From positions 459 through 64,458 of the forward strand of contig JASJXX010000002.1 of the NCBI GenBank assembly GCA_030123765.1: a stretch of DNA of 64,000 bases, in the 5' to 3' direction. This DNA comes from Actinomycetota bacterium. GTDB taxonomy: Bacteria; Actinomycetota; Acidimicrobiia; Spongiisociales; UBA5794. Both the position numbers and the translations under genes were made by a program. The notes beneath the pieces were generated by a model. It ran no database searches and was not told the origin of the DNA. It worked only from the letters and a program-made list of their open reading frames with translations. Position 1 is the stretch's first letter. Every line of letters begins with the position of its first letter. Below, in pieces: positions 16,647 to 64,000 of the stretch.

Positions 16647-16678
16647 CCCGACGACAAGGCGATTGCCCGACGGGGTGA

Positions 16679-17338: not shown

Positions 17339-17448
17339 GTGTGGTCTCCAGGCAAATCGGGTGGGGGTTCATCTGTGAGTTTACGCGGATCGCGACAGAA
17401 GCGCTATAGAGCTGGCTGCAACAATCCCTCACCCCGCGTTCTCACGTC

Positions 17449-46291: not shown

Positions 46292-47752
46292 CTACGCCTC
46301 GTCGACTGATGCGTTAAAGGATTCGATCATCTCGTCGATCGGATCTACCAACGCCTGAATACCCGTCCAGTAGTCCGAGTCGTACCACTGGGACTGGATC
46401 TCCTCATACGTCTTACCCTGCTGTTCGACCCACGTGTAATACTTCAGGTTGTGGACTCGCTTACGCTCGTAGTAGTCGAGCTCCTGCACATGTTGGAGGC
46501 TCTGGCCCATGAGATGCTGGTGGTAGGCGGCCGCAGCATCATGCGCCGTGAACTCGCCCCGCTCGTCGTTGAGTTCCGCCAGACGCGACCCGTACATCTC
46601 CATCGAGTCCGTCCCGACCGTCATCACGACGTCGTTCCCTGTGAGCTCGTACCACTTCGCGAACTTGATGGCCATCAACATGTTCGCGACCCCGGAGATA
46701 CCAAGGAGCGGAAGCTTCTCGATGAACGCCGCAGATGCTCCCTGGGCAGCCAGGTAGGCAAGGCCTGCAGGCTCGTTAAAGAGACGGATCAGGCTGATCG
46801 ATGACTCGTCATCGATCCCCATCACCATGTCTGTGTTGCGCACGTTGTGGATCCACGGGATGTGCTTGTCCCCGATCCCTTCTATCCGGTGCTCACCAAA
46901 GCCGTTGTAAAGCATTGTCGGGCACTCGGTCGCTTCACCCGCAACGATCTTCGAGTTCGGATACTGCTGTTTGAGGTAGTCTCCCGACGCGATCGTTCCG
47001 GCCGAGCCCGTTGTCAGGGTCACGCCGGCGAACCGGTCGAGCGGGCCCATGACCTCCCTGAGGACCTCGAACATGGCCGGGCCTGTGACCGAGTAGTGCC
47101 AGAGATAATTTCCGAACTCGTCGAACTGGTTGAAGATCACGAGATCCTCGCCCGAGACCCGCAACTCGTTGCACTTGTCGAAAATCTCTTTGACGTTCGA
47201 CTCGGTTCCCGGCGTCCTGATGATCTCGCCTGCCACGCTCTCGAGCCAATGGAACCGTTCGGCACTCATCCCTTCAGGGAGGATCGCGATCGACTCGCAC
47301 CCGAGGAGATTCGAGTCGTAGGCGCCGCCCCGACAGTAGTTGCCGGTCGAGGGCCATACAGCCTTCTGCGTTGCGGGGTCGAACTGGCCGCTGACGAGCC
47401 TCGGGACGAGGCAGCCGAACGCCGCGCCGACCTTGTGGGCGCCGGTCGGAAACCACTTTCCCTCGAGCATGATGATGCGAGCGTCAACACCGCTGACCTC
47501 GGGGGGAACTTCGAAGTAGTTCACCCCACCAAACCCTCCGCCCGAGGGTGTCGGGTCGTTGTGCCAGGTGATGCGGTACAGGTTGACGGGGTCGAGATCC
47601 CACAGCCCGACGCTGCCGAGGCGCTGCTTCACCTCTTCAGGGACCAGGCTCGGGTCCCGCATCTGCTTGAACGTCGGGATCTTGAAATTCCGCGCCTTTG
47701 CCTGGATGACGGCGGAGCGGAGAACAGACTCGTTGACGGTGAGGTCGATCAT
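46292..47752 (-). CDS. Fold-type II PLP-dependent enzyme (cysteine synthase/CBS-like core with long N- and C-terminal extensions)
   Basis: The candidate PLP-lysine segment is FPTGAHKVGAAFG, followed by WPSTGNYCRGGAYDS...AILPEGMSAERF, which parallels the PxGSxKDR...SGNxG...MPExMSxER pattern. It is 486 aa and the last gene of the carbamate-kinase operon. Confidence 0.7.
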   Translation of the reverse strand: MIDLTVNESVLRSAVIQAKARNFKIPTFKQMRDPSLVPEEVKQRLGSVGLWDLDPVNLYRITWHNDPTPSGGGFGGVNYFEVPPEVSGVDARIIMLEGKWFPTGAHKVGAAFGCLVPRLVSGQFDPATQKAVWPSTGNYCRGGAYDSNLLGCESIAILPEGMSAERFHWLESVAGEIIRTPGTESNVKEIFDKCNELRVSGEDLVIFNQFDEFGNYLWHYSVTGPAMFEVLREVMGPLDRFAGVTLTTGSAGTIASGDYLKQQYPNSKIVAGEATECPTMLYNGFGEHRIEGIGDKHIPWIHNVRNTDMVMGIDDESSISLIRLFNEPAGLAYLAAQGASAAFIEKLPLLGISGVANMLMAIKFAKWYELTGNDVVMTVGTDSMEMYGSRLAELNDERGEFTAHDAAAAYHQHLMGQSLQHVQELDYYERKRVHNLKYYTWVEQQGKTYEEIQSQWYDSDYWTGIQALVDPIDEMIESFNASVDEA

Positions 47753-47777
47753 GACGGACGGTCCTTTCCGTTGCCTC

Positions 47778-49031
47778 TCAATTGCTCAGGGCTGCTTTGA
47801 GCGCCTCGAGGTTCGGGTCGATGTACATGGGCTCGGTCCCGACCGCGGCTACAGCGCTCATGACCGAGGCAACGTCCTTGAGGCCGCTCCCGGTCGCGAG
47901 CATCACGACTCGGTCTCCGGCTCCGATGAGACCACGGTCAAGAGCCGCGACGATACCGGCGTACGGCGCAGCTCCCGCCGGTTCAGCGAAGACGCCCGAT
48001 CCGCGCGCCAACGTCGGTATTGCGGCAAGAATTTCGTCGTCTGCGACACGGAGATACGCTCCCCCCGTCTCGGTGACGGCTGCCATCGCCTTGATACGGT
48101 CACGGGGCAGATCGGCACTGATCGAGTCGGCAACAGTCTCCGCAGAGATAGGGGGCTTGGTCAGCACGTCCTCACCGCTCTCGAAGGCTTGAACGAGATA
48201 GTCACTCCCTGCGGCCTGAATGCCGAAGATACGCGGCACGCGGTCGATCCATCCGAGGGCGAAGGCATCCTTCACGGCCTTGTGGACCCCGCCGATGATC
48301 GACCCGTCGCCGACGCTCACGAAGATGGCGTCGGGGGCCTCCCATCCGAGGTCTTCGAGGATCTCGAGACCGGCGGTTTTCTTCCCCTCCGTCATGAACG
48401 GGTTGTACCCGGTATTGCGGTTGTACCAGCCGTACTCGGCGACGGCCTCCATGCAGAGTTCGAATGCGTCGGTGTACGTGCCATTGACGAGAGCGACCGT
48501 AGACCCGTACGCGAGCAACTGGGCGATCTTCGCTTCCGGCGCGGAGGAGGGGACGAATATCACGCTGCGCAGCCCGACGCTCGCCGCGATTCCGGCGAGG
48601 GCTGCTGCGGCATTCCCCGTCGACGCGGTGGTGACGACCTCCGCCGCACGCGCCTGCGCCTTGACGACGGCCATCGCCGAGGCACGGTCCTTGAGCGACG
48701 CCGTCGGCTGACGCCCCTCGTCCTTTACCCAGAGGTTCGCTATCCCGAGCCTGGCCGCGAGTGGCTTCACGTCATAGAGCGGCGTCCCTCCGATGCTGAG
48801 CGGCGGGACCACCGTGTCGCTGGCGAGCGGCATGAGCGGGAGATATCGCCACATCGTGCGATCTCGATTCTCGGCGAGTACCTCGCGCGTGAAGGTTGCT
48901 CCGATGCGCTCATAGTCGTAACGGACATCGAGTATCCCCTCGTTGCCGTGATCCGTGCAGACGTAACCTGCAAAGTCTTCCGGGTACATCGTGCCACAGA
49001 TCACGCACGCGAGTCCGATGACGTTACTCAT
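47778..49031 (-). CDS. Threonine synthase-like PLP enzyme with N-terminal zinc-ribbon
   Basis: It has the N-terminal CVICGTMY...YVC, then GGTPLY, KDEGRQPTASLKDRAS (PLP Lys) and TASTGNAAAALA. It is 417 aa and has an ATGA overlap with carbamate kinase. Confidence 0.8.
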   Translation of the reverse strand: MSNVIGLACVICGTMYPEDFAGYVCTDHGNEGILDVRYDYERIGATFTREVLAENRDRTMWRYLPLMPLASDTVVPPLSIGGTPLYDVKPLAARLGIANLWVKDEGRQPTASLKDRASAMAVVKAQARAAEVVTTASTGNAAAALAGIAASVGLRSVIFVPSSAPEAKIAQLLAYGSTVALVNGTYTDAFELCMEAVAEYGWYNRNTGYNPFMTEGKKTAGLEILEDLGWEAPDAIFVSVGDGSIIGGVHKAVKDAFALGWIDRVPRIFGIQAAGSDYLVQAFESGEDVLTKPPISAETVADSISADLPRDRIKAMAAVTETGGAYLRVADDEILAAIPTLARGSGVFAEPAGAAPYAGIVAALDRGLIGAGDRVVMLATGSGLKDVASVMSAVAAVGTEPMYIDPNLEALKAALSN

Positions 49032-49969
49032 CGAACGATCCTGGTGCCGGTCTCGCCGGCCATGGCCCGCTCGAGGTTCTCAGGATTTGTGATCAGTGCT
49101 TCGCTGCCTCCAGCCTCGAGGAACTGGACGACGGCACGCATCTTGGGGGCCATCGAACCCTCGGCGAAGTGTCCGCCCTCCTCAAGGTACGCCTTCACCT
49201 CGTCGAGCGTGAACTCATCCATCCACCGCTGATCCGGTGTACCGAAGTTGAGCGCGACCTGCTCGACTGCGGTGCAGATGAGCAGGAGATCGGCTCCGAT
49301 CTCGCTCGCCAGGAGCGCCGACGCGAGATCCTTGTCGATCACCGCCGCGATCCCTTCCAAATCTCCCTCTTCGTTCACAACGACCGGGATACCGCCGCCG
49401 CCGACGGCGATGGTGACGATTCCGGCGTCAACGAGGACCCGGATCACATCAAGTTCGACGATCCGCATCGGATGGGGGGAGGCCACGACACGACGCCAGC
49501 CGCGCCCGGCATCCTCAACGACATCCCAACCCTCCTCGTCGCGCCGGCGCACTGCCTCGTCCTCGTCCATGAAGGATCCGATTGGCTTCGTCGGCTTGTC
49601 GAACGCCGGATCGGCACGATCGACCTCGACCTGTGTGACAACCGTGACGACGCTCTTGTCGATGCCGCGCTGGCGAAAGTCGTTGACCAGGTTCTGCTGG
49701 AGCATGTACCCGATCGCGCCCTGTGTGTCAGCCCCGCAGTAATCGAGCGGGACCTCGTGAAGCTCGTTACTCGCAAGCTCGGACCGTCGCAGGATGAAAC
49801 CGATCTGGGGTCCATTGCCGTGAGAGATCACGACGTCCCACCCCTGCTCAACGAACGTTGCGATACGGTCGTCGGTCTCGGCCGCGGCTGCGTACTGGTC
49901 CTGGACCGACTGGTGCCTGGCGTCCGGGATCAGCGAATTACCGCCAATGGCGATAACGAGTCTGGGCAT
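49028..49969 (-). CDS. arcC: Carbamate kinase
   Basis: It has MPRLVIAIGGNSL and VISHGNGPQIG and is 313 aa, matching the amino-acid-kinase fold of ArcC/YqeA type. Its start overlaps the upstream stop (TAATG). Confidence 0.9.
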   Translation of the reverse strand: MPRLVIAIGGNSLIPDARHQSVQDQYAAAAETDDRIATFVEQGWDVVISHGNGPQIGFILRRSELASNELHEVPLDYCGADTQGAIGYMLQQNLVNDFRQRGIDKSVVTVVTQVEVDRADPAFDKPTKPIGSFMDEDEAVRRRDEEGWDVVEDAGRGWRRVVASPHPMRIVELDVIRVLVDAGIVTIAVGGGGIPVVVNEEGDLEGIAAVIDKDLASALLASEIGADLLLICTAVEQVALNFGTPDQRWMDEFTLDEVKAYLEEGGHFAEGSMAPKMRAVVQFLEAGGSEALITNPENLERAMAGETGTRIVR

Positions 49970-50928: not shown

Positions 50929-50956
50929 CCTTTGAGTCGGCTTGGTACATTGGCCA

Positions 50957-50966
50957 TACTATAGTA
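50957..50966. promoter_or_regulatory. Perfect 10-bp palindrome TACTATAGTA in an AT-rich divergent promoter region (candidate GntR/HutC operator)
   Basis: It lies between the divergent starts at 50928 (-) and 50982 (+). It is flanked by GTACA repeats (50946-50950 and 50964-50968) and overlaps -10-like hexamers TATAGT, TACAAT and TATTAT. Confidence 0.45.
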
Positions 50967-50981
50967 CAATATTATGACCCT

Positions 50982-51734
50982 ATGCCATGCGGAGTGCTCC
51001 CGATGATTACCCGCAACCCGTCACTCACCGACCAGGTGAAAGCGCACATCAAAGAGCTCATCCTCACCGACGGTTTCGAGGATGCCCGAATCCCCCCCGA
51101 GACGGAGCTCGCCGCCGACCTCGGAGTCAGCCGCACCACCGTCCGCGACGCGCTGAGTCGCCTCCAGAGCGAGGGAGCGATCTATCGCCGTCAGGGCGCA
51201 GGCACCTTTGTCAACCAGCAGGGCCTCCAGATCAAGTCCCGCCTCGAAGACATCTGGTCCTACGAGAAGCTCCTCGAAGACCACGGATTCGAACCGTCGG
51301 TGCGAGTGCTCGCCGCATCCAAGGCTCCCGCCGACTCCCCCACCGCCGAGGCCCTGGGCCTCAACGACGGCGACATGGTGCTGATCATCGAGAAACTCTT
51401 CCTCGAAGACGAGAAGCCGGTCATGCTGACGATCAATCGCATCCCGACCCACTTCCTGAGCGGAACCGACTACGCCGACGATGAGGCGGCCCCGATCTAC
51501 GAGTTTCTCCAGGACCACTGCGACCGCTCACTGAGCTACTACCTCTCAGAGATCATCCCGGTCGCCCTCGACGCCGACACGGCGTCCAAGCTCGGGGTTG
51601 ATCCGGGCACACCGGCGATCTCATTCGACGAGATCGGATTCGACCAATCCAACGAGCCGCTCGTGCGGGCGACGTCACACTTCCGCGATGACCTCCTTCG
51701 GTTCCGGCTCATCCGCAAGAGAAGCGGGGCATGA
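50982..51734 (+). CDS. GntR family transcriptional regulator, HutC subfamily (UTRA effector domain)
   Basis: It has the winged HTH ETELAADLGVSRTTVRDALSRLQSEGAIYRRQGAGTFV followed by a UTRA-like C-terminal domain. The alternative start is ATG 51003. Confidence 0.88.
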   Translation: MPCGVLPMITRNPSLTDQVKAHIKELILTDGFEDARIPPETELAADLGVSRTTVRDALSRLQSEGAIYRRQGAGTFVNQQGLQIKSRLEDIWSYEKLLEDHGFEPSVRVLAASKAPADSPTAEALGLNDGDMVLIIEKLFLEDEKPVMLTINRIPTHFLSGTDYADDEAAPIYEFLQDHCDRSLSYYLSEIIPVALDADTASKLGVDPGTPAISFDEIGFDQSNEPLVRATSHFRDDLLRFRLIRKRSGA

Positions 51735-51775
51735 ACCATCCTCAGCCAGAGTCACGAGCCACAAAGGAGTAGTTG

Positions 51776-52750
51776 ATGCAGACCTATCTGCGGGGCCGCG
51801 ACATGATCACGACCCAGGAGTGGACCAAGGACGAGCTCGACACGGTGATCGATATCGCCCTCGACCTGAAACGCCGACGGGCTCTCGGTGAGCCGCACGC
51901 TCTGCTACGCGACAAGGTCCTCGCGATGTTGTTCTTCTTCTCAAGCACTCGAACCAGAGCAAGCTTTGAGGCCGGCATGGCCCAGCTCGGCGGCCACGCC
52001 ATGTTCCTCGACTCGACGAGCACCCAGATCGGCCACGGCGACACCTGGAAGGAGATCGGAGACATTCTGGGCCGCTACAACGATGGGATCGCCATCCGCC
52101 AGGTCGACTGGGGCATCGGCAACGACTACATCCGCGCCGTTGCGGAGGCCAGCCGCACCCCGGTGCTCAACATGCAGTGCGACTGGTATCACCCCTTCCA
52201 GGCACTTGCGGACCTGCTGACGATCATCGAGCAGAAGGGCGACCCCCGCAAGCTCACCATCAACATGAGCTACGCGTACGCAGCCAGCTATCAGAAGCCC
52301 ATCAGCGTGCCGCAGAGCCTCATCCTGCTCATGACCCGGTACGGCGCGAACGTGCGCCTCACCCATCCGCCGGAGTTCAAGCTCATGCCCGAGATCATCG
52401 CTCAGGCTGAGGAGAATGCCAAGAAATCCCACGGGTCCTTCGAGATCGTCGAAGACTTCGAGGAGGGGATGCGCGGCGCAGACGTCGTCTACGCCAAGGC
52501 GTGGGGTTCGATGCTCACCACCTCTGACCATGAAGAGTCAGCAAAGATCTCGGCGCATTACCAGGACTGGATCGTCGACCCGAGGCGGATGGAGATGGCC
52601 CACGAGGATGCCATCTACATGCATCCGCTCCCGGCCGACCGAAACGTAGAAGTGGCGGACGCCGTCATCGACGGGCCATCAAGCCGCGTGTTCGACCAGG
52701 CCGAGAATCGGCTCCACGTGCAGAAGGCGGTGATGGCGCTCACGATGTGA
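51776..52750 (+). CDS. YgeW-like (knotted) carbamoyltransferase
   Basis: It has SSTRTRASFE. NMQCDWYHPFQALADL matches E. coli YgeW NLQCDIDHPTQSMADL. SYQKPISVPQSLILLMTRYGANVRLTHP matches SYGKPLSVPQGIIGLMTRFGMDVTLAHP. It also has YMHPLPADR. The RBS AAGGAG lies 6 nt before ATG 51776. Confidence 0.8.
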   Translation: MQTYLRGRDMITTQEWTKDELDTVIDIALDLKRRRALGEPHALLRDKVLAMLFFFSSTRTRASFEAGMAQLGGHAMFLDSTSTQIGHGDTWKEIGDILGRYNDGIAIRQVDWGIGNDYIRAVAEASRTPVLNMQCDWYHPFQALADLLTIIEQKGDPRKLTINMSYAYAASYQKPISVPQSLILLMTRYGANVRLTHPPEFKLMPEIIAQAEENAKKSHGSFEIVEDFEEGMRGADVVYAKAWGSMLTTSDHEESAKISAHYQDWIVDPRRMEMAHEDAIYMHPLPADRNVEVADAVIDGPSSRVFDQAENRLHVQKAVMALTM

Positions 52751-52801
52751 GCGCTGTCGTGGATCCGGATCGTTGCGTCTCACCACGAGAGGACGCACGA
52801 G

Positions 52802-53380
<579 letters not shown>

Positions 53381-53433
53381 GGAGATGTGACCATGAGAAG
53401 AGTCGTCGGATATGTCGACGGTACCGACTCGGC

Positions 53434-53673
53434 GTGCGCATCGGTCACGTTCACAAGGTTTACGCCCCCCACGACAGCGTGCCGCCGGGAGGTGTCACCT
53501 ACCAGGACATCTTCCACGTCTGCCGCACCTTCGACACCCCTCTCCTCATTGAAGTCCACAACGGGCTCCGCGACAAGGCGGAGACGCTCGTCGCCGACAT
53601 CCCGGATGTCGTAGAATTCGTGGATCCAGCGGCGATGCTCTCCAAGGTGCGGGACAATCTCGAGAACAAGTAA
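53434..53673 (+). CDS. Hypothetical small protein (79 aa)
   Basis: It has a GTG start, high third-position GC and a protein-like sequence (VTYQDIFHVCRTFDTPLLIEVHNGLRDKAETLVADIPDVVEFVDPAAM). I recognise no family. The overlapping minus-strand ORF looks like a mirror artefact. Confidence 0.4.
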   Translation: MRIGHVHKVYAPHDSVPPGGVTYQDIFHVCRTFDTPLLIEVHNGLRDKAETLVADIPDVVEFVDPAAMLSKVRDNLENK

Positions 53674-53714
53674 CAGACGCTTCGGCGTCCTCAGCGATCC
53701 AGAAAGGGGCGTCG

Positions 53715-54860: not shown

Positions 54861-54864
54861 AAAA

Positions 54865-56058: not shown

Positions 56059-56068
56059 CCCGAGGGGG

Positions 56069-56656
56069 CTACTCGCTCTGCAGTTCCTCGTAGTCTCGGG
56101 GGGTGTTGATGTCGCGAGGTGCACTCTGCGCCACCGCAACTTTTACCACGCGGTCGTCCTGCGCGTCGACAAGGAGGCGCCACAGCACCTTCTCCCCCAC
56201 CATCGACGCAGCACACTCCACCGCGTCGCGTGACAGAAGGAAAGGGTGGGCGACCCGGTCGCGGTACGCGGCCACCGCTGCCCAGGGTCTCTCCTCCGTC
56301 CAGACCCCGACCATCGTATTGATGACGGTGGTCCGAACCTGGGGCAGATCGCCCGCCACGAGCAGGAATGCGGCGGCGTCAGGATCCGCGGTAGTCGCCG
56401 TGAGGAGTGACGACATGTTCCCACGGCGGTAGTCCGGATTCGTCACGACCGTCACGGAGACGGCCTTGATCGACGCTTCGACCATCTCTGCATCGCACCC
56501 GGTGACGACGATCACCCTGTCAAGCATGCTCGCCTGGACCGCATCAATCGTCGCGTTGAGTACCGTCGTCCCCTGGTACTCCAGCGTGAGCTTCGATGCT
56601 GCCATCCGCGTCGAGGCGCCTGCGGCGAGAACGACCCCGACGATTGGACGCGGCAT
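56069..56656 (-). CDS. mocA: Molybdenum cofactor cytidylyltransferase (MocA-like nucleotidyltransferase)
   Basis: It has VVLAAGASTRM, matching the MobA/MocA NTP_transf_3 fold. It is the last gene of the Mo-hydroxylase operon. Confidence 0.8.
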   Translation of the reverse strand: MPRPIVGVVLAAGASTRMAASKLTLEYQGTTVLNATIDAVQASMLDRVIVVTGCDAEMVEASIKAVSVTVVTNPDYRRGNMSSLLTATTADPDAAAFLLVAGDLPQVRTTVINTMVGVWTEERPWAAVAAYRDRVAHPFLLSRDAVECAASMVGEKVLWRLLVDAQDDRVVKVAVAQSAPRDINTPRDYEELQSE

Positions 56657-58876
56657 TCAGACCCCGACAATGTCGGTAGGGAGCACCGGAACCCTCGTCA
56701 GTGATCTACCCGTCGCCGCTCGAATAGCCGCGACGATCGCCGGTGTCGAACTGATCGTGGGTGACTCCGCTATCCCCTTCGCCCCGAAGGGACCCCAGTG
56801 GTCCCCCTCTTCGATGATCCGGACTTCGACGTCGGGGGCATCGAGGAACGTCGGAATCAGGTAGTCGGTGAACGTCGGATTCCGGATGACACCCCCGTCA
56901 ATGACAAGCTCCTCCATCACCGCGAAGCCCATGCCTTGCATGATGCCACCCTCGAGCTGCCCCACTATCGCCTGAGGATTGAGTGCCCTGCCGACATCCT
57001 GAGCCGTATCGACACGGACCACGCGCACGAGGCCGAGCTCCGGGTCGACGTCCACCACGGCACGGTGGGCAGCGACGACGAACCCGGCGTGGATCTCCCC
57101 CTGGCCGTCGGCGTCAGGCGGGTAGGTCTTCGGATGCCTGAAGCGAACATGACATTCGACGGGGCCATCGCTGCAGATCTCGTTGACCGTCGCGACAAGC
57201 TCGCCCTGTTTGTACACACCATCATCGCGGAGCTCGTCTCCGCCGTGGAGCGAGAGAATCTGATCACGGAGCCCGACGGCAGCATCATGCACGGCGCCCC
57301 CGGTCATCTGGGTCTGACGGGACGCCGAAGTGGACCCGGCCGAACCGATCTGTGAGGTGTCCTTCCATACGACAGCTACTCGATCAACTCCCAGAACGGT
57401 CCGGGCGATCTGCTGGCAGACGGTGACAAGACCCTGTCCCACCTCTATCGCCGCCGTGTGGATCTCGATGCCTGCGGGGGTCATCACCACCCGGGCCTCG
57501 GCGAAATCGTCGAAGCCTTCGGAGAAAGCGAGGTTCTTCAACCCGACGGCGTACCCGACGCCGCGAACGACCGCTGACCGAGGCGTCGTCAACCCCGTCC
57601 CGCCGGGAGCGAGCCGCGGGTCGTCCGAGGGGATCGGATCCGGAATCGGTATCGATTCGAGCGCATCGATCACCGCGACCGTCGGGAGCGAGCCCTGTAT
57701 GACCTGGCCGGACGTGGCAAAGGGGTCGCCGGGAGCGAGCGCGTTGCGCCGCCGGAGTTCGAGGGGAGCGAGGCCGATCGCCTCAGCGAGGCTGTCCATC
57801 TGGCTCTCGGACGCGAAGCAGGCTTGCACCACGCCGAATCCGCGCATCGCACCCGCCGGAGGATTATTCGTTCGGACGACCACCGCATCGATGACGACGT
57901 TGTCGCAACGATACGGGCCAACGCTGAAGAACGCTGCGTTGGCTATGACCGCCGGGCTCGTGTGGGCGTAGGCCCCACCGTCGAGAATCAGCCGTGCCGT
58001 GACCTTCACCAGATTCCCGTCCTCGTCCGCCTCGTGGCGGTACCACATGCGTGACGGGTGCCGCTTCACATGACCGACGAACGACTCAGATCGGTCGTAC
58101 ACCATCTTCACGCTGCGGCCGGTCGCGAGGGCGAGCATGGCGACGTGGATGTGCAGCGAGATGTCCTCCCGCGAGCCGAACGCGCCGCCGATCCCTGCAG
58201 GGTGGCAACGGACCTGATCGGGTTCCAGATCGAGGCATGCGATGATCTGGCGGTGGTCCACGTGGACCCACTGGCTCGTGATGTACAGGTCGAGACCTCC
58301 CTCCCCGTCCGGGATCGCGAATCCCGCCTCAGGTCCGAGCGGCGCCTGATCCTGCGTCGCTGTCTCGTAGAACCCCTCGACGACAACACTCCCCTCTGCC
58401 GTCTCGTCCCCGCGGCGGATCCTCATCTCGCGGAATGTCGAGCCGATCTCCGCAGCTCTCTCAGGATCATCAAGCGGGTCAAGCGGCTCCCACACCGCCA
58501 CGATCGCCGCAGCGGCACGCCTCGCGGTCTCCTCGTCGTCGGCTGCCACTACGGCAACCGGTTCACCCCAATATCTGGCTGTTCCGTCGCAGAGCACAGG
58601 CTGATCCTGCTCCACCTGACCGAACATGGGGCTACCGACCACGTCGTCCTGCGTCAGGACAGCGTGCACGCCGACCATCGCGAGGGCGGGGCCGATGTCA
58701 AGTTCCGTCAGCGTGGCGTGAGCGTGCGGGCTCCGCAGCGTCGCGCCCCACAGCATCCCCGGCGAGGACAGATCGGACGCGAAGGCGAAGTTCCCTGTGA
58801 CCTTCGGCTCTCCGTCCGGCCTCCCGACGCTGGTACCGATGCCCCCCCGTACCCTGGGCAGCGTTCGAGTCGTCAT
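56657..58876 (-). CDS. Xanthine dehydrogenase family, molybdopterin-binding large subunit
   Basis: It is 739 aa with the N-terminal a/b-hammerhead (GRPDGEPKVTGNFAFASD) and the Moco domains GIGGAFGSRED and GPFGAKGIAESP. Confidence 0.9.
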   Translation of the reverse strand: MTTRTLPRVRGGIGTSVGRPDGEPKVTGNFAFASDLSSPGMLWGATLRSPHAHATLTELDIGPALAMVGVHAVLTQDDVVGSPMFGQVEQDQPVLCDGTARYWGEPVAVVAADDEETARRAAAAIVAVWEPLDPLDDPERAAEIGSTFREMRIRRGDETAEGSVVVEGFYETATQDQAPLGPEAGFAIPDGEGGLDLYITSQWVHVDHRQIIACLDLEPDQVRCHPAGIGGAFGSREDISLHIHVAMLALATGRSVKMVYDRSESFVGHVKRHPSRMWYRHEADEDGNLVKVTARLILDGGAYAHTSPAVIANAAFFSVGPYRCDNVVIDAVVVRTNNPPAGAMRGFGVVQACFASESQMDSLAEAIGLAPLELRRRNALAPGDPFATSGQVIQGSLPTVAVIDALESIPIPDPIPSDDPRLAPGGTGLTTPRSAVVRGVGYAVGLKNLAFSEGFDDFAEARVVMTPAGIEIHTAAIEVGQGLVTVCQQIARTVLGVDRVAVVWKDTSQIGSAGSTSASRQTQMTGGAVHDAAVGLRDQILSLHGGDELRDDGVYKQGELVATVNEICSDGPVECHVRFRHPKTYPPDADGQGEIHAGFVVAAHRAVVDVDPELGLVRVVRVDTAQDVGRALNPQAIVGQLEGGIMQGMGFAVMEELVIDGGVIRNPTFTDYLIPTFLDAPDVEVRIIEEGDHWGPFGAKGIAESPTISSTPAIVAAIRAATGRSLTRVPVLPTDIVGV

Positions 58877-59340
58877 GCTCCCTCACTTGTCAGTGCGGTG
58901 AAGGCGCGCAGGATCGCCCCGTATCCAGTGCACCGGCAGATATTGCCAGATAACGCCTCACGAATCTCAGGCTCGGTCGGGTGCGAGTTCGTCTCGAGCA
59001 GATGCACGCCAGTAACGATGAACCCGGGAGTGCAGAAACCACACTGGACGGCACCCTCTGCGAGCATCACCTCCTGGAGTGGGTGCAACTGCGCGCCCTC
59101 CCCGATTCCCTCGACGGTCGTCACTGTCGCGCCGTCGGCGTCCGCCGCCATGACAAGACACGAGCAGACGGCTGCACCGTCGAAGATGACGGTGCATGAT
59201 CCACACTCCCCCTGCTCACACGCGTCCTTCGTACCCGGCAGACCAAGATCGTTACGAAGTGTGTGCAGCAGGCTCTCGGAACCCGCAACATCCACGGAAC
59301 GTCGCTCTCCGTTAACGGTGATCACGATGGGCACGGTCAC
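58873..59340 (-). CDS. [2Fe-2S]-binding small subunit (CoxS/XdhC-iron-sulfur type)
   Basis: All eight Cys ligands are present: CEQGECGSCTV...CSC and CGFCTPG...CRCTGY. The GTG 59340 start overlaps the upstream TGA. Confidence 0.9.
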   Translation of the reverse strand: MTVPIVITVNGERRSVDVAGSESLLHTLRNDLGLPGTKDACEQGECGSCTVIFDGAAVCSCLVMAADADGATVTTVEGIGEGAQLHPLQEVMLAEGAVQCGFCTPGFIVTGVHLLETNSHPTEPEIREALSGNICRCTGYGAILRAFTALTSEGA

Positions 59341-60137
59341 GCGAGACACCGTTCGGCGAGCCTGCGCGCAAGCACCCCCGCAGCGTGACGTCGATACCCC
59401 TCCGTCGATCGGTGATCGGTGATCGGGCGAACCTCCTCCGACACGATCCGGGAGAACTCCTTGAGCGCCTCTTCGGTGATCCTCGCCTCGGCATTGAGCA
59501 TCTCCTCTGCCCTCGTCACCCGTATAGGCGTCGGCGCCACCGATCCGAGAGCAACACGGAAACCGTCGTCGCCGCGCATGACCACGCAACTCACAATGGA
59601 GATGACCATCGCGTTGCGAGTCCCGACCTTGGCGAACTCCTGAGCCGTAGGGACGTCATCGGGAATAGCGACACCGGTGACCACCTCGTCAGGTTCGAGC
59701 GAGGTGTGTTTGACACCGGTGAAGAACTCGTTCCAGGGAATGACTCGCTCGCCACGCTCCTTCGATCGGACAACGATTCGGGCATTCGCGGCAGCGATCC
59801 AGGGAAGGCCGTCACCAGCCGGGCTCGCGGTCGCGACGTTGCCTCCAATCGTTGCAACGGCACGGATCTGCGGCGAGCCGATGGTCCGGGCAGCCTGAGC
59901 GAGAGCGCCGTGATCCGAGCCCTCGAGTCGGGCCCAGGTAACGCCGGCTCCGATACGGTTCGATGTCATCTCCCTGAGCTCTTCTACGCGTCGCAGGGAG
60001 ATGACCCGCGACGGCCGGCGGTGGGCGATGTTCACCTCCACCATGAGGTCGGTCCCGCCGGCGAGGAGCTGCGCGTCGGGTCGTTGAGCCTTCGCTGCGA
60101 GCGTTTCGTCGAGATTCCGGGCAGCGAGAAAGTCCAT
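59337..60137 (-). CDS. FAD-binding subunit of molybdopterin dehydrogenase (CoxM-like)
   Basis: It has LLAGGTDLMVEVN and ATIGGNVATASPAGD (FAD_binding_5). The start is ATG 60137 (MDFLAARNLDE). Confidence 0.88.
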   Translation of the reverse strand: MDFLAARNLDETLAAKAQRPDAQLLAGGTDLMVEVNIAHRRPSRVISLRRVEELREMTSNRIGAGVTWARLEGSDHGALAQAARTIGSPQIRAVATIGGNVATASPAGDGLPWIAAANARIVVRSKERGERVIPWNEFFTGVKHTSLEPDEVVTGVAIPDDVPTAQEFAKVGTRNAMVISIVSCVVMRGDDGFRVALGSVAPTPIRVTRAEEMLNAEARITEEALKEFSRIVSEEVRPITDHRSTEGYRRHAAGVLARRLAERCLA

Positions 60138-60217
60138 GACCGTACCGTAGCCCGCGGCCCGCTGCCACTTGTCCGTCGCCCGTGGCCGGCGAAGGGCTCC
60201 CGCTGCTCCTCTCCCCG

Positions 60218-61582
60218 TCACCCCACCAGACGCTTCGCGGCCCGATTGTGCTCCTCAATCAGCTTCGGTAGCTCGACGCCCACCAGTTCGCCGTCGCGGA
60301 CGACAGGTTTGCCGTGTACGAAGGAGTGGTCCACGCGCACAGCAGCGGCGAACAGGACTGCCGCGACGGGATCGTGCAACGCCCCGGCGTACTCGATGCG
60401 GTCGAGCGAGATAGCGATGAAGTCCGCGCCTCTGCCAGGCTCAAGCGAACCGATGTCGTCCCTCCCGAGAACCGCTGCCGATCCGCGGGTCGCGATGCGC
60501 AGAACCTCCCTAGCAGTGAGCAGCCTCCCGCCCTCGATCGAGGGCGCCGCCGCGAGGCGGGAGAGCAACATGGCCTGCCGGGCCTCTCCGAGCAGGTGGC
60601 TGCCGTCGTTGCTCGCCGATCCATCGACGCCGATGCCGAGCCGGACGCCGGCCGCCAGGTAGCGGCGAACCGGAGCGATACCCGAACCGAGGCGCATGTT
60701 CGACGATGGGCAGTGGGCGATCCCGGTGCCAGATTCAGCGAGACGGTCGATCTCACCATCGTTGATGTAGACACCGTGGGCGTACCACACGTCATCCCCG
60801 ACCCACCCGAGATCCTCCATGAGCTCGACGGGACGCCGCCCGAACCTCTCGATGCAGAACTGCTCCTCGTCGTACGTCTCAGCAACGTGGGTGTGGAGGT
60901 GGACGCCGTGACGGCGCGCAAGGTTCGCCGATTCGCGCATCAGCTCCTCCGTCACCGAGAAGGGGGAACACGGGGCGACCACGATTCGGGTCATGGCGCC
61001 CGGAGCCGGGTCGTGGAACGCTTCGATGACCCTCTCGGTGTCGAGCAGGATCGCCTCTTGGTCCTCGACGACGGAGTCGGGAGGCAGCCCGCCGTCGCTC
61101 TCGCCGAGGCTCATCGACCCACGCGCTGCGTGGAAGCGCAGACCGACCCCGGCGGCACCCTCGATCTGGTCGTCGAGCCTCGATCCGTTAGGGAAGACGT
61201 ACTGGTGGTCTGACGAGGTCGTGCACCCGGAGAGGGCGAGCTCCGCGAGGGCGAGCCGGGTCGCGATCCGCACGTCGTCGGGTGTGATCCGTGCCCAGAT
61301 TGGGTAGAGCGTGCGGAGCCAGTCAAAGAGGCCGACGTCCTGAGCGCCGGGGACCGCCCGCGTGAGGGTCTGGTAGAAGTGATGATGCGTATTGATGAGC
61401 CCGGGGAGCACGACGTGCCCGGAGAGATCGAGAACTTCGTCTGCGCTGTCGGGGAGCTCGGAGGTCGTGCCTACGTGTTTGATGATCCCGTCCACGGCGT
61501 AGAGACCGCCGTCCGCGATCTCGGTTCCGTCGTCGTCCATGGTGGCCAGAACCTGCGCGTGCCGGACAAGAAGTGTGCTCAT
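60218..61582 (-). CDS. 8-oxoguanine deaminase-like amidohydrolase (guanine deaminase/SsnA superfamily)
   Basis: It has the metal ligands NTHHHFYQTLTR, HTHVAET and VDGSASND. The subgroup blocks SSDHQYVFPNGSRLDD and RFHAARGSMSLGESDGGLPPDSVVE match what I remember for 8-oxoguanine deaminases. Confidence 0.75.
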   Translation of the reverse strand: MSTLLVRHAQVLATMDDDGTEIADGGLYAVDGIIKHVGTTSELPDSADEVLDLSGHVVLPGLINTHHHFYQTLTRAVPGAQDVGLFDWLRTLYPIWARITPDDVRIATRLALAELALSGCTTSSDHQYVFPNGSRLDDQIEGAAGVGLRFHAARGSMSLGESDGGLPPDSVVEDQEAILLDTERVIEAFHDPAPGAMTRIVVAPCSPFSVTEELMRESANLARRHGVHLHTHVAETYDEEQFCIERFGRRPVELMEDLGWVGDDVWYAHGVYINDGEIDRLAESGTGIAHCPSSNMRLGSGIAPVRRYLAAGVRLGIGVDGSASNDGSHLLGEARQAMLLSRLAAAPSIEGGRLLTAREVLRIATRGSAAVLGRDDIGSLEPGRGADFIAISLDRIEYAGALHDPVAAVLFAAAVRVDHSFVHGKPVVRDGELVGVELPKLIEEHNRAAKRLVG

Positions 61583-61682
61583 AGAAGTGAATGTACCAAC
61601 CTACTCAACTCCTACGTCGCTCTCCGAGCTCCGTTCTCTCGGTAAAGTGGAGGCACGGGATAGAAGAGGAGCCGAGACGAAC

Positions 61683-62423
61683 ATGACCATGCAGTACTCC
61701 CGACCCCTCACCCTCGATGAGGCCACCACCCTTGCAGCCCGGCCCGACACCGTGATCATGGCGGGGGGAACGTCCGTTAACGCCGGAGGCGGTAGCTCCG
61801 GTGTCACCGCCGTGGATCTGCAAGCGCTCAACCTCGCCGGAATCGAATCTCTTGGTGCGTTCATCCGCATCGGGGCGATGACGCGCCTTCAGGCACTCGT
61901 GGAATCAGACCTCGTCCCGTTCACTCTCCGCGATCTCGCCCGACGCGAAGCCCCCAGCACGATCCGTAACGCGGCGACGGTCGGTGGTACCGTCGGTGCC
62001 GCGGATCCCGAGAGTGAACTCCTCGCCGGCCTGCTCGCGTTCGGTGCCGTCGTCACTCTCGCGAGGGTGGGTTCAACGACCGACCATGCCCTCGACGACA
62101 TCCTCCACGATCCAGGGCTGATCAGCCAGGCGATCATGACGAGTGTCACGATCCCGACCACCGGAGTCGCTGCCGCCGAACGTACCGGTCGCACGCCGAT
62201 GGACCGACCGATCGTGATGGTCGTTGCCCACAGAGGCGCGGCAGAAGCCGTCCGTATGGCCGTGACCGGAGTCGCACACGTTCCGGTGGTCGTGGATCCA
62301 GAGCGGATCAAAGACCTCGATCCGCCGTCAGACTTCCGCGGGTCACCCGACTATCGAAGGCACCTCGCCACCGTGCTCGCAGACCGGGTCCTTACCGCAG
62401 TCACGGAGAGTGATCCGGAATGA
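61683..62423 (+). CDS. YgfM-like short FAD-binding subunit
   Basis: It is 246 aa with IMAGGTSVN and ATVGGTVGAADPESE (FAD_binding_5). The RBS GAGGAG lies upstream, and there is an ATGA overlap with the next gene. Confidence 0.8.
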   Translation: MTMQYSRPLTLDEATTLAARPDTVIMAGGTSVNAGGGSSGVTAVDLQALNLAGIESLGAFIRIGAMTRLQALVESDLVPFTLRDLARREAPSTIRNAATVGGTVGAADPESELLAGLLAFGAVVTLARVGSTTDHALDDILHDPGLISQAIMTSVTIPTTGVAAAERTGRTPMDRPIVMVVAHRGAAEAVRMAVTGVAHVPVVVDPERIKDLDPPSDFRGSPDYRRHLATVLADRVLTAVTESDPE

Positions 62424-64000
62424 CGATCACCCTCACCATCAACGGGGTCGAGCAGATCCTCTCCTGCGAGCCCCACGAATCGCTACGTTCGGTGCTGCGA
62501 AGAGCCGGATACTTCAGCGTCCGTTACGGGTCGAGCACGGGGGAGACAGGTGCAGCCGCCGTCCTCGTCGACGGCAGCCTCATCTCCGCCGACGTCATGC
62601 TCGGTGCGCAAGCCGACGGCCACGATGTCGAGACGATCGAAGGTCTCAGCACACTCGGCCAACTCCATCCGATCCAGAAGGCATTCATCGACTCGGGCGC
62701 GATCCAGTCCGGGTACTCGACTCCGGCGACGATCCTCGCCGCGAAAGCCCTCATCGACCGGAACCCGAGACCCACCGAGGACGATGTCAGGGATGCCCTC
62801 TCAGGAATACTCGACCGCGAGACGGGTTATCTGCGGCCCGTCCACGCCGTGTTGCGCGCCGCTGCGGTGATGCGGGGAGAGGAACCTGATGACATCGCCA
62901 TCACGCACCTCGATCCTCTCCTTGATGGTGGCAGCGACGCAGCGAGCGCCGATCGCGCCCGGGTCTCCGAGATCGCCCCTCGCGTCGTGCCGTGCAGTGA
63001 CGTCCCGCGGACCCGCGTCGTCGGGCACGCAGAGCCGAAGGTCGACGCTATCAAACTCGTCAAGGGGAACCCTGCGTTCACCGACGATGTCGACCTGACC
63101 GGGACCCTCATCGCGAAGGTCCTCTACAGCCCGCATGCCCACGCGAGAATAACCTCGATCGACGATTCGGCAGCGCGATCTCTCCCCGGCGTCCACGCGG
63201 TCCTGCATCACGGCAACGTGACCCAGGTACGGTACGCGTCTGGTGGTCAGAGTTACCCGAACCCGCTCCCCTACGACCAGGTGAGCTTCGGCGACAAGGT
63301 CCGTTATGTCGGGGACCGTGTCGCCGCCGTTGCCGCCGACACCGAGGAGATCGCGCTCTCTGCGCTCGACCTGATCGATGTCACCTACGAGGTGCTCCCC
63401 GCGGTCTTCGACGAGAACGAGGCAATCCTCGAGGGTGCACCGGTGATCCATGACGAACCTGGGATGGAGGGCGCGCACGATCCGTCCCGCAACATCGTCC
63501 ATCATCTCAAGGCCGACACCGGCGACATCGAGGAAGGCTTCGCTGCTGCCGACCGGATCTTCGAACAGACCTATCGCGTGCACCAGGTACAGCCGGCTCC
63601 GATCGAACCACACGTTGCGATCGCCGCGTGGGACTCCGACGAACGACTTGTCATCACCTCCTCCACCCAGGTGCCTTTCCATATCCGGCGCATGGTCGCG
63701 CCGCTCCTCGGTCTTCCTGTGAAGCGGATCCGCATTATCAAGCCCCGGATCGGTGGTGGGTTCGGAGTCAAACAGGAGCTGCTGATCGAGGATATCGTCG
63801 GTCACCTTACGATGGCTACAGGTCGTCCTGTCCGCCTCGAACTCACCCGCGCAGAGGAGTTCGTCTCGAGCCGCACACGGCACCCTCAGACGATCACTTT
63901 CAAGACCGGTGTCGACGCTGACGGGAGACTCACCGCCCAGGAGATGCGCATCATCGCCAACACCGGTGCATATGGCACTCACGGCCTGACGGTCCAGCTC
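62420..64000 (+). CDS. XdhD-like molybdenum hydroxylase: Cys-less [2Fe-2S]-like domain fused to the molybdopterin subunit (3' end outside the window)
   Basis: This frame is not in the ORF track because it has no stop inside the window. ATG 62420 gives MTITLTINGVEQ...IQSGYSTPATILAAKAL...ALSGILDRETGY then ...HAEPKVDAIKLVKGNPAFTDD...DRVAAVAADTEEIALSALDLIDVTYEVL...IIKPRIGGGFGVKQE, which looks colinear with E. coli XdhD as I recall it. Confidence 0.8.
   Translation, partial: MTITLTINGVEQILSCEPHESLRSVLRRAGYFSVRYGSSTGETGAAAVLVDGSLISADVMLGAQADGHDVETIEGLSTLGQLHPIQKAFIDSGAIQSGYSTPATILAAKALIDRNPRPTEDDVRDALSGILDRETGYLRPVHAVLRAAAVMRGEEPDDIAITHLDPLLDGGSDAASADRARVSEIAPRVVPCSDVPRTRVVGHAEPKVDAIKLVKGNPAFTDDVDLTGTLIAKVLYSPHAHARITSIDDSAARSLPGVHAVLHHGNVTQVRYASGGQSYPNPLPYDQVSFGDKVRYVGDRVAAVAADTEEIALSALDLIDVTYEVLPAVFDENEAILEGAPVIHDEPGMEGAHDPSRNIVHHLKADTGDIEEGFAAADRIFEQTYRVHQVQPAPIEPHVAIAAWDSDERLVITSSTQVPFHIRRMVAPLLGLPVKRIRIIKPRIGGGFGVKQELLIEDIVGHLTMATGRPVRLELTRAEEFVSSRTRHPQTITFKTGVDADGRLTAQEMRIIANTGAYGTHGLTVQL

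Follow-up and report, generated by a model that had tools for sequence, protein, structure and literature searches.

A putative phosphorolytic variant of the reductive urate degradation cluster in an environmental genome, probably of Acidimicrobiia

Introduction

Which pathway would combine two carbamoyltransferases, a single carbamate kinase and two pyridoxal 5'-phosphate (PLP) enzymes with two molybdenum hydroxylases? This question is raised by positions 46,292 to 64,000 of a 64,000-nucleotide stretch of contig JASJXX010000002.1 (assembly GCA_030123765.1), hereafter called the window, whose host is probably an environmental Acidimicrobiia genome. A sequence-only reading of the window had described the region as a purine/urate catabolic cluster built on a ygeW/yqeA/ygfM/xdhD core and had regarded the gene set as not belonging to a described pathway. 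We found that the region is very probably the left two-thirds of a cluster for reductive (2,8-dioxopurine) urate degradation. The core of that pathway was described in 2025, and to this extent the earlier statement did not hold; what is new is the present variant, in which one enzyme family is putatively re-purposed and two others have no assigned role. The enzymes discussed here are a carbamoyltransferase with the fold of aspartate carbamoyltransferase (ATCase), which we term the pseudo-ATCase (pATC), a second, short YgeW-like carbamoyltransferase (CT2), a ThrC-like PLP enzyme, and a 486-residue PLP enzyme (PLP486) with the fold of CysK and cystathionine beta-synthase (CBS).

The reductive pathway, which does not depend on oxygen, was first reported for gut bacteria, by Liu et al. 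(bioRxiv 2025.04.24.650524) and Li et al. (Life Metab PMC12507026). In the published scheme, XdhD-YgfM converts urate to 2,8-dioxopurine, YgfK dearomatises this compound, and ring opening by SsnA and HyuA leads to 2,3-diureidopropionate. One ureido group is then phosphorolysed by YgeW and ATP is formed from carbamoyl phosphate by YqeA, a step for which ATP formation was shown, while YgeY hydrolyses the other ureido group and YgeX converts 2,3-diaminopropionate to pyruvate. The target of YgeW is the 3-ureido group according to Liu et al. (2025.04.24.650524) and the 2-ureido group according to Li et al. (PMC12507026); Percudani (PMC12990295) counted among the open questions the stereochemistry of the intermediates as well as the regiochemistry of ureido cleavage and the order in which the two groups are removed. 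So far, the pathway has been associated with anaerobes, those of the gut among them. Li et al. (PMC12507026) noted SsnA in Actinomycetota and Chloroflexota and scored the downstream enzymes by Pfam family only (PF00185 and PF00291), a level at which the variants described here cannot be told apart.

Materials and Methods

Genes in the window were called from the open reading frame (ORF) listing together with Pfam and NCBIfam scans, and NCBIfam scores are given against the cut-off of the respective model. Metagenome contigs were scanned with the XdhD fragment of the window, and genes were then mapped in the relatives, whose loci and contigs are designated by L numbers. The scan for PLP486 loci used a 5-sequence alignment as the query, as a diverse 14-sequence alignment was too divergent. 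The neighbourhood counts for pathway genes refer to 80 PLP486 loci and to genes within 10 kb of PLP486.

Results and Discussion

The XdhD block and the genes past XdhD in relatives

The right-hand end of the window matches the E. coli ygeW-xdhD region, and relatives carry further genes of that region past XdhD; on these grounds, we assign the region to the reductive uric acid pathway with considerable assurance. The identities to the E. coli proteins (Table 1), the best models TIGR03313 and TIGR03312 and the synteny in relatives all agreed with the purine/urate core that had been proposed from the letters of the sequence. In particular, the best model for the XdhD-like protein was TIGR03313, with 424 bits for approximately half of the protein. 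Full-length XdhD of relatives (964 residues) keeps a glutamate aligned with E606 of E. coli XdhD, the residue that Li et al. (PMC12507026) singled out for urate orientation, and this glutamate is missing from XdhA and from the PucD-like subunit encoded in the window. The PucD-like subunit is accompanied by separate, adjacent genes for a flavin adenine dinucleotide (FAD) subunit and a 2Fe-2S subunit.

The block comprising the 8-oxoguanine deaminase, xanthine dehydrogenase, MocA, YgfM and XdhD was conserved in approximately 20 relatives, in which XdhD was 73-83% identical, and the deaminase gene adjoined YgfM/XdhD in more than 20 relatives. The sequence-only reading had proposed a search past the end of the window, and in relatives this search had a positive outcome: past XdhD lay an XdhC-family protein, YqeB (291.5 > 220) and YqeC (162.4 > 73), then, on the opposite strand, a D-hydantoinase HyuA (522.7 > 393, with the allantoinase model at 281 < 358), as well as YgfK (915 > 835 in L032) and an SsnA-like ORF that was cut (best model SsnA, 255 bits). 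The SsnA of L093 scored above its cut-off. On two contigs, L003 (2.7 Mb) and L028, the carbamoyltransferase operon and the XdhD block were found together. Since these genes are found as a group in other phyla as well, their association is not due to chance.

Within the 64-kb window, tblastn with the E. coli proteins revealed no counterpart of SsnA or YgfK, the sole SsnA-related match being the deaminase (24% identity), and likewise no hydantoinase and no YgeY-type M20 peptidase, as had been noted earlier. YgeY and YgeX were found neither in the window by tblastn nor in the flanks of close relatives. The deaminase was considered as the SsnA of the cluster and rejected: it passed the equivalog model NF006055, as expected from its earlier naming as 8-oxoguanine-deaminase-like, while the guanine deaminase models scored far lower and the SsnA models were far below cut-off. 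Moreover, a separate SsnA adjoins YgfK in relatives, which argues that the deaminase is not SsnA.

Upon comparison with the E. coli ygeW-xdhD and C. sporogenes clusters, we found both shared and differing genes. XdhD-like and YgfM-like proteins, MocA, carbamate kinase, a YgeW-related enzyme, and xanthine dehydrogenase and purine deaminase feeders are shared, and XdhC, YqeB, YqeC, HyuA, YgfK and SsnA are shared with close relatives of the window. In contrast to E. coli, the window has a pseudo-ATCase in place of YgeY, a ThrC-like enzyme in place of YgeX, a short form of YgeW that is 36% identical and lacks both insertions, the additional PLP486, and a GntR/HutC regulator instead of the sigma-54 activator YgeV. 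The host also differs, as it is environmental and probably actinobacterial, whereas the known hosts are gut anaerobes.

A pseudo-ATCase in the gene position of YgeY

The pATC sequence was aligned with genuine E. coli PyrB, whose residue numbering is used here. The alignment revealed that the carbamoyl-phosphate residues S52, T53, R54, T55, R105, H134 and Q137 were kept, together with R167. In ATCase, R167 binds the alpha-carboxylate, and K84, R229 and Q231 bind aspartate. None of the latter three residues was retained in pATC: K84 was replaced by tyrosine (and the adjacent K83 by aspartate), R229 by proline and Q231 by valine with an 8-residue insertion, and HPLP was changed to HSLP. The substitutions were invariant across 10 homologues from two phyla (Acidimicrobiia and Chloroflexota). 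Judging from these residues, the ligand of pATC should be an N-alpha-carbamoyl amino acid with a non-carboxylate side chain.

Barba et al. (2013, PMC4016543) defined the pseudo-ATCases and divided them into three subgroups. In pATC, STRT and HPTQ are kept, the motif HSLP stands instead of HP[LG]P, and RxQ is lost; owing to these invariant changes, pATC is a pseudo-ATCase by the published definition. It appears closest to their subgroup 2, in which STRT and HPTQ are also kept, HPLP has become H[ST]LP and RxQ is lost, and for which no function was proposed. The residues of pATC at the RxQ position (P-V...V, with the 8-residue insertion) differ from the published GX[SC] and VXP patterns, a comparison made at the level of patterns only; the list of pATC homologues was saturated by relatives at least 84% identical. 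The subgroup 2 pseudo-ATCase of Nocardioides sp. JS614 adjoins a ygeW homologue, xdhABC and hyuA (Barba et al., PMC4016543), and the setting of pATC is alike, with a YgeW-type carbamoyltransferase and Mo-hydroxylase genes beside it and a hydantoinase in relatives.

The neighbourhood of pATC consists of carbamate kinase and PLP enzymes. Directly upstream of CT2, the gene was pATC in 16 of the 80 PLP486 loci and a YgeY-family hydrolase in six (that of L149 scored 466.6 > 321.5), and the two were both present in only two loci. We therefore lean, by a modest measure, towards the view that pATC replaces YgeY and would phosphorolyse the 2-ureido (N-alpha-carbamoyl) group.

A different role for the pATC/carbamate kinase module is suggested by Rubrobacter xylanophilus, in which the pseudo-ATCase Rxyl_2847 catalyses arsenolysis and phosphorolysis of allantoate and adjoins the carbamate kinase Rxyl_2848 (Barba et al., PMC4016543). 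This is the ureidoglycine carbamoyltransferase that the sequence-only reading had correctly named for Rubrobacter, though the enzyme acts on allantoate. In both organisms, carbamate kinase comes immediately after a pseudo-ATCase and the surrounding cluster serves purine catabolism; the phosphorolysis of an alpha-ureido acid, proposed here, is common to both. The module could thus belong to an allantoin-type oxidative ureide route, with pATC as a ureidoglycine carbamoyltransferase acting on allantoate and the proximity of the Mo-hydroxylases reflecting general purine catabolism; allantoate (diureidoacetate) and 2,3-diureidopropionate are close analogues, and the PucD-type xanthine dehydrogenase of the window would make urate. 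However, the Rubrobacter cluster is oxidative and contains uricase, 5-hydroxyisourate (HIU) hydrolase, 2-oxo-4-hydroxy-4-carboxy-5-ureidoimidazoline (OHCU) decarboxylase and allantoinase, none of which was found among the ORFs scanned in the window and in the flanks of relatives, although no dedicated query was run; for uricase and allantoinase, the Pfam scan of the cluster genes and of approximately 23 larger upstream ORFs agreed with the absence noted earlier. Additionally, the cyclic amidohydrolase of relatives is the D-hydantoinase described above and not an allantoinase, pATC travels with SsnA, YgfK, HyuA and YgeW-type genes across phyla, and its motif is HSLP, whereas that of the Rubrobacter subgroup is HPLA. 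We consider the allantoin route improbable and retain pATC as the putative substitute for YgeY in a reductive cluster.

A short YgeW-like carbamoyltransferase and one carbamate kinase

CT2 had been labelled YgeW-like, and this label stood in part. All NCBIfam scores were below cut-off, including those for OTC (ornithine carbamoyltransferase; 272/306), AOTC (250/288) and YgeW (185/453; the YgeW models ranged from 174 to 185 against cut-offs of 453 to 500). Nevertheless, beyond its identity to E. coli YgeW, the multiple alignment revealed YgeW-specific motifs that have no OTC counterpart, namely QCD..HP.Q, AY..SY.KP.SVPQ and (Y)xK.W, while both YgeW insertions and the C-terminal tail were absent. 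In other phyla, the same cluster position is held by true YgeW orthologues that are 65-72% identical to the E. coli protein, and we infer that CT2 is isofunctional with YgeW.

The sequence-only reading had two carbamoyltransferases feeding one carbamate kinase, and this idea gained support from the alternation of pATC and YgeY at one position directly upstream of the YgeW-like gene. If pATC and CT2 are both phosphorolytic, as we propose, one carbamate kinase could harvest two carbamoyl phosphates. The logic is similar to that of the arginine deiminase pathway, with catabolic ornithine carbamoyltransferase and carbamate kinase, in which a ureido group and phosphate give carbamoyl phosphate and then ATP, a comparison also drawn by Liu et al. 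(2025.04.24.650524); the substrates are different, and in the present case two enzymes from different carbamoyltransferase subfamilies would work one after the other on a single C3 skeleton. Two further loci (L095:3531-5643 and L155:9547-11600) contained tandem short YgeW-like paralogues of approximately 40-47% mutual identity together with carbamate kinase and neither pATC nor YgeY; such a pair would be a third way of supplying two ureido-cleaving enzymes.

The ThrC-like enzyme and YgeX

The best match of the ThrC-like enzyme in the PDB was M. tuberculosis threonine synthase (174 bits), and its best solved relatives are threonine synthases. The motifs STGNA[AG]AA and NP[FY][MT]xEGKKT were present in all 39 family members compared (STGNAAAA and NPFMTEGKKT in the window copy), at the places where threonine synthases have STGNTSAS and NPxRxEGQKT. 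The threonine of the STGNT loop and the arginine of NPxRxEGQKT, which we take to bind the substrate phosphate in the T. thermophilus and M. tuberculosis threonine synthases, are not retained, and this loss makes O-phosphohomoserine an unlikely substrate.

The ThrC-like enzyme was the only YgeX-related match in the window (21% identity by tblastn; NF006058 54 against a cut-off of 276). It was present in 52 of the 80 PLP486 loci and YgeX in two, and in none of the loci did the two occur together. The two loci with genuine YgeX (L158 and L163; NF006058 488 > 276) lacked the ThrC-like gene and kept PLP486, in the gene row HyuA-PLP486-YgeX. On the strength of this pattern, we slightly favour the ThrC-like enzyme as a substitute for the diaminopropionate ammonia-lyase YgeX. 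The earlier proposal that both PLP enzymes occupy the place of YgeX can be kept for the ThrC-like enzyme, which was never in a locus with YgeX, and not for PLP486, which co-occurs with YgeX in the two Bacillota loci.

PLP486, a family of CysK/CBS fold

In the NCBIfam scan, all CysK/CBS models were far under their cut-offs for PLP486 (TIGR01139 89.7 against 350.95; TIGR01137 59 against 510). The AlphaFold model (predicted local distance difference test score, pLDDT, 94.3) revealed a core with helical extensions of approximately 100 residues at either end, the catalytic core of CysK/CBS enzymes being about 300 residues long. As evident from the Foldseek results, the best-matching folds were beta-cyanoalanine synthase and CysK, with CBS also found, at a template modelling (TM) score of approximately 0.85 on the target and 22-25% identity. 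Three PLP-binding elements are conserved and align with their CysK counterparts: the Schiff-base lysine (K107), the asparagine loop for carboxylate binding (PSTGN) and the Gly-rich phosphate loop (GSAGT). A nearly invariant aspartate, Asp382, takes the position of the serine that contacts the pyridine nitrogen in CysK, in an alignment that is possibly off by one residue there, and suggests that the chemistry of PLP486 differs from that of CysK.

An exhaustive search found 340 representative clusters of homologues at E <= 1e-30, down to approximately 30% identity, and a scan of species-representative genomes yielded at least 596 PLP486 loci. Among these are loci in Chloroflexota, Desulfobacterota, Bacillota (including the isolate Vallitalea maricola), SAR324, Bipolaricaulota and Terriglobia. 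In addition to the ThrC-like gene, the 80 neighbourhoods contained CT2/YgeW (37 loci), carbamate kinase (at least 33), HyuA (31), pATC (20) and YgeY (13), and SsnA, YgfK and Mo-hydroxylases lay near PLP486 in many of them. A co-directional row in L093 reads GntR, pATC, CT2, carbamate kinase, ThrC-like, (VanZ), PLP486, (hydrolase), SsnA, (PydA-like) and YgfK. By its sequence and gene neighbours, PLP486 is the founder of an undescribed family that usually lies within such clusters.

PLP486 was also considered as a substitute for YgeY and for YgeX. Both assignments were rejected, as it shares 13 loci with YgeY and occurs with YgeX in L158 and L163; because of the latter two loci with genuine YgeX, it would be an extra component of the pathway. 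Its substrate could be 2,3-diaminopropionate or albizziin, in a beta-elimination, a beta-replacement or an epimerisation, although any one specific reaction is no better than an unlikely guess.

The minus-strand operon could alternatively belong to ordinary or biosynthetic metabolism that only adjoins the purine genes, either as a set of the pyrB/thrC/cysK kind whose carbamoyl phosphate would come from carbamate kinase or as a unit for the synthesis of a carbamoylated diamino acid such as albizziin. Public annotation lists pATC as aspartate carbamoyltransferase and a cysteine synthase among the products of the operon, pATC and the ThrC-like enzyme pass TIGR00670 and TIGR00260, respectively, CysK-fold enzymes are typically beta-replacement synthases, and the putative GntR operator described below is confined to this operon pair. 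However, the residues that would bind the aspartate side chain are gone from pATC, as are the phosphate-site residues from the ThrC-like enzyme, and PLP486 does not come near any CysK/CBS cut-off. Furthermore, in Chloroflexota, Desulfobacterota, Bacillota, SAR324 and other groups, the four genes are again accompanied by HyuA, SsnA, YgfK, YgeY and Mo-hydroxylases, and pATC swaps at one position with a catabolic hydrolase, YgeY. An ordinary or biosynthetic operon thus appears even less probable than the allantoin route, and a catabolic operon of the urate cluster is preferred.

Some further features of the PLP486 loci were noted in certain lineages. In Anaerolineae (L101, L102, L104, L108, L109 and others), a GT2 glycosyltransferase gene precedes PLP486 in 20 loci, and a conserved protein of approximately 190 residues (c3) with no Pfam match follows it in 19-29 loci; the window encodes no counterpart of either. 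In some Chloroflexota clusters, PydA/UacX-like DHO_dh genes lie beside YgfK (L093:12220-13131 and 16440-17726; L101:18730-20558). With a SelB gene nearby in eight loci, those clusters may encode selenoproteins or depend on selenium.

The divergent promoter region

Between pATC and the GntR gene lies a sigma-70-like promoter (TTGGTA-17-TACAAT), and the near-palindrome TGTACTATAGTATG (50955-50968) overlaps it. In L003, L028, L085 and L119, the palindrome is conserved while its flanks vary, and it occurs once in the whole window; it is a candidate HutC-family operator overlapping the GntR promoter. Acidimicrobiia, as well as several Chloroflexota loci, conserve the GntR gene next to pATC or to the YgeW-like gene, and its product is likely a local repressor of the two divergent carbamoyltransferase operons.

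A second element, the 10-mer TTGGTACATT, occurs at only two sites in 64 kb, 50942-50951 (+) and 61590-61599 (-), both in divergent promoter regions of the cluster. The copy at pATC/GntR lacks conservation in relatives and corresponds to a -35 box; the copy at the deaminase gene lies 7 nucleotides before the ATG, is conserved in more than 20 relatives and looks like the extended -10 box of a leaderless mRNA. These two readings ruled out the 10-mer as an operator common to the three gene groups. An Rfam search of 46-64 kb revealed no known RNAs or riboswitches at E <= 1.

The proposed pathway

Taken together, homology, synteny and residue conservation are consistent with the following scheme, which as a whole we consider likely. 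Urate would be fed in by the PucD-type xanthine dehydrogenase and by the 8-oxoguanine-deaminase-family enzyme, the latter forming urate or xanthine in the place that GuaD takes in other clusters. The XdhD-like and YgfM-like proteins would reduce urate to 2,8-dioxopurine, and YgfK, SsnA and the D-hydantoinase HyuA, predicted just past the end of the window as in close relatives, would dearomatise this compound and open both rings to give 2,3-diureidopropionate. CT2 would then phosphorolyse the 3-ureido group and pATC the 2-ureido (N-alpha-carbamoyl) group, the latter being the job of the hydrolase YgeY in E. coli, and the single carbamate kinase would convert both carbamoyl phosphates to ATP. 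At the C3 end, the ThrC-like enzyme would take the place of YgeX and yield pyruvate and ammonia, with PLP486 as a further conserved component. The GntR/HutC regulator would control the two divergent carbamoyltransferase operons through the palindrome overlapping its own promoter.

Several observations weigh against this scheme. YgfK, SsnA and HyuA lie outside the window, and their presence in this genome is derived from synteny in relatives. The neighbourhood sample was centred on PLP486 and XdhD, and 24 of the 80 PLP486 loci had none of the searched pathway genes in reach, at least seven of them with full 10-kb flanks. The ATCase model TIGR00670 was passed by pATC (253.6 > 236.95), although NF002032 was not (232.7 < 263). 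The pathway intermediates have been proposed to be R (D) configured, whereas ATCase acts on L-aspartate. The palindrome TGTACTATAGTATG is confined to the pATC/GntR promoter, so that the sequence speaks neither for nor against co-regulation with the Mo-hydroxylase genes. Finally, CT2 and pATC could each act on the other ureido group than proposed here, because Liu et al. and Li et al. disagree on the ureido group attacked by YgeW. We favour the regiochemistry of Liu et al., since the ancestry of pATC lies with ATCase, which carbamoylates an alpha-amino group, and that of the YgeW type with OTC/AOTC, which carbamoylate a side-chain amino group.

A reductive pyrimidine or general hydantoin route, with a YgfK/PydA-like reductase, a dihydropyrimidinase, a carbamoyltransferase for beta-ureidopropionase and unrelated Mo-hydroxylases, would accommodate the match of the relatives' hydantoinase to the dihydropyrimidinase model, the relationship of YgfK to dihydropyrimidine dehydrogenase, the PydA-like DHO_dh genes of L093 and the Pyd pathway analogy stressed by Li et al. 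(PMC12507026), but it is the least probable of the alternatives, as XdhD with Glu606, YgfM, SsnA, YqeB, YqeC and purine deaminases are consistently present and two ureido-cleaving enzymes with a C3 amino-acid lyase fit 2,3-diureidopropionate and not the single ureido group of N-carbamoyl-beta-alanine.

Under the reductive urate scheme, many environmental bacteria, among them Acidimicrobiia, Chloroflexota and Desulfobacterota, would have the pathway or a close variant of it. A fully phosphorolytic version in several phyla, with CT2 and pATC yielding two ATP per urate and the ThrC-like lyase and PLP486 at the C3 end, is a tentative extension that we rate somewhat below an even chance. Such a variant amounts to a natural experiment in which an ATCase fold with putative N-alpha-carbamoyl specificity stands in the gene position of YgeY, and it predicts a doubled ATP yield. 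If true, it would give a function to the subgroup 2 pseudo-ATCases, add two new enzyme activities and, by analogy, resolve the respective ureido targets of YgeW and YgeY. In thousands of metagenome-assembled genomes, genes of these types are probably mislabelled as aspartate carbamoyltransferase, threonine synthase and cysteine synthase. PLP486 and the other variant enzymes lend themselves to direct testing and might be of use in engineered probiotics that degrade urate.

Gene layout of the window

The gene inventory, order and strands given by the sequence-only reading were recovered for all 16 genes from the ORF listing, Pfam and NCBIfam, with small start-codon corrections (Table 1). In the pATC operon, the two reported overlaps were also found: the pATC stop overlaps the carbamate kinase start by 1 nucleotide (49969), and the carbamate kinase stop overlaps the ThrC-like start by 4 nucleotides (49028-49031). 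A 25-nucleotide gap separates the ThrC-like gene from PLP486. The second minus-strand operon (60-56 kb) is transcribed in the order deaminase, FAD subunit, 2Fe-2S subunit, PucD-like Mo subunit and MocA, and the YgfM-like and XdhD-like genes overlap by 4 nucleotides. First-start ORF boundaries were too long for the 2Fe-2S, FAD, YgfM-like and aminotransferase genes. The listed ORF 62410-62889 was rejected as a spurious frame; the true XdhD-like frame begins at 62420 and is truncated by the window end after 526 codons.

Table 1. Features of the urate cluster region, with window coordinates, strand and supporting evidence.
Feature	Position	Strand	Evidence
PLP486, 486-residue CysK/CBS-fold PLP enzyme	46292-47752	-	Pfam PALP 56 bits
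ThrC-like PLP enzyme, N-terminal Cys-rich ribbon	47778-49031	-	NF006050 294.3 vs 303; TIGR00260 170.7 vs 167.1
Carbamate kinase, YqeA/ArcC type	49028-49969	-	TIGR00746 379.6 > 358.25; 48% identity to E. coli YqeA
Pseudo-ATCase (pATC), ATCase-fold carbamoyltransferase	49969-50919/50928	-	Pfam OTCace_N + OTCace
Divergent promoter/operator region pATC/GntR	50942-50970		Promoter scan
GntR/HutC-family regulator, UTRA effector domain	51003-51734	+	Pfam GntR + UTRA; 243-residue form called in relatives
CT2, short YgeW-like carbamoyltransferase	51776-52750	+	36% identity to E. coli YgeW, 32% to ArgI
gdhA remnant	52814-53380 (homology)	+	tblastn, Pfam
D-isomer 2-hydroxyacid dehydrogenase, glyoxylate/hydroxypyruvate-reductase-like	53715-54860	+	Pfam 2-Hacid_dh, 2-Hacid_dh_C; NF009714 234 vs cut-off 455
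Class I/II aminotransferase	54865-56058	+	Pfam Aminotran_1_2 175 bits; all NCBIfam models below cut-off
MocA-type molybdenum cofactor cytidylyltransferase	56069-56656	-	Best model TIGR03310 (MocA/YgfJ) 131.8 vs cut-off 186.45; 30% identity to E. coli MocA
PucD-like xanthine dehydrogenase molybdopterin subunit	56657-58876	-	TIGR03196 pucD 731.6 vs cut-off 783.65; Pfam Ald_Xan_dh_C, MoCoBD_1, MoCoBD_2
Xanthine dehydrogenase 2Fe-2S subunit	58873-59334	-	Pfam Fer2, Fer2_2; XdhC/PucE models 159-167 bits, below cut-offs; 153-residue protein called in relatives
Xanthine dehydrogenase FAD subunit	59337-60137	-	Pfam FAD_binding_5, CO_deh_flav_C; 32% identity to E. coli XdhB
8-Oxoguanine deaminase family amidohydrolase	60218-61582	-	NF006055 679.8 > 532; SsnA models 128-130 bits
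YgfM-like FAD subunit	61683-62423	+	Best model TIGR03312 (YgfM family) 72.9, below cut-off; 27% identity to E. coli YgfM
XdhD-like fused 2Fe-2S + molybdopterin subunit	62420 to beyond 64000	+	40% identity to E. coli XdhD, 556 columns

Three genes between CT2 and MocA, the gdhA relic, the dehydrogenase and the aminotransferase, had been counted among the cluster members and proved not to be conserved parts of it. In L003 and L025, CT2 adjoins MocA with no dehydrogenase or aminotransferase in between, and because of this absence we regard all three as lineage-specific insertions. The dehydrogenase was found in L085 and L119, and the aminotransferase in L015, L021, L031, L085 and L119; judged from this distribution, both are lineage-specific passengers. 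By tblastn, the gdhA remnant corresponds in a single frame to residues 5-155 and 405-448 of the full-length GdhA of L028, with an in-frame deletion of approximately 250 central residues that removed the catalytic/NAD(P) domain; Pfam likewise detected the N-terminal domain plus only the tail end of the catalytic domain. Intact gdhA lies near the XdhD block in L028, L040, L043 and L048. The remnant is not part of the pathway. In L007, L015 (1182-3539), L021 and L031, a transketolase-like protein of approximately 780 residues with weak TKT matches is encoded between the aminotransferase and MocA, and the window lacks it.

The first 46 kb of the window contain unrelated genes, which places the start of the cluster at 46292. 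A Pfam scan of approximately 23 larger upstream ORFs found only housekeeping or unrelated functions and no further purine genes in 1-46 kb; Mfd, MazG, phosphoribosyl pyrophosphate (PRPP) synthetase, MetG, RsmI, AceK, glycerol kinase and a MacB-type ABC transporter are encoded there. Convergent with PLP486 lies the gene for a 584-residue membrane protein with three DUF5671 repeats (44525-46279, +), whose counterpart in L001/L084 has 617 residues and a Phage_int_SAM_4 match. AceK, the isocitrate dehydrogenase kinase/phosphatase, is best known from Proteobacteria; a full-length copy is encoded at 17449-19143 (-) of this seemingly actinobacterial genome. Homologues at 85-97% identity are nearly all labelled Acidimicrobiia or Actinomycetota. 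The public contig L084 (JADFQV010000008.1), which is identical to part of the window, carries the name 'Chloroflexota bacterium B80T3L11', which may reflect a binning or labelling conflict.

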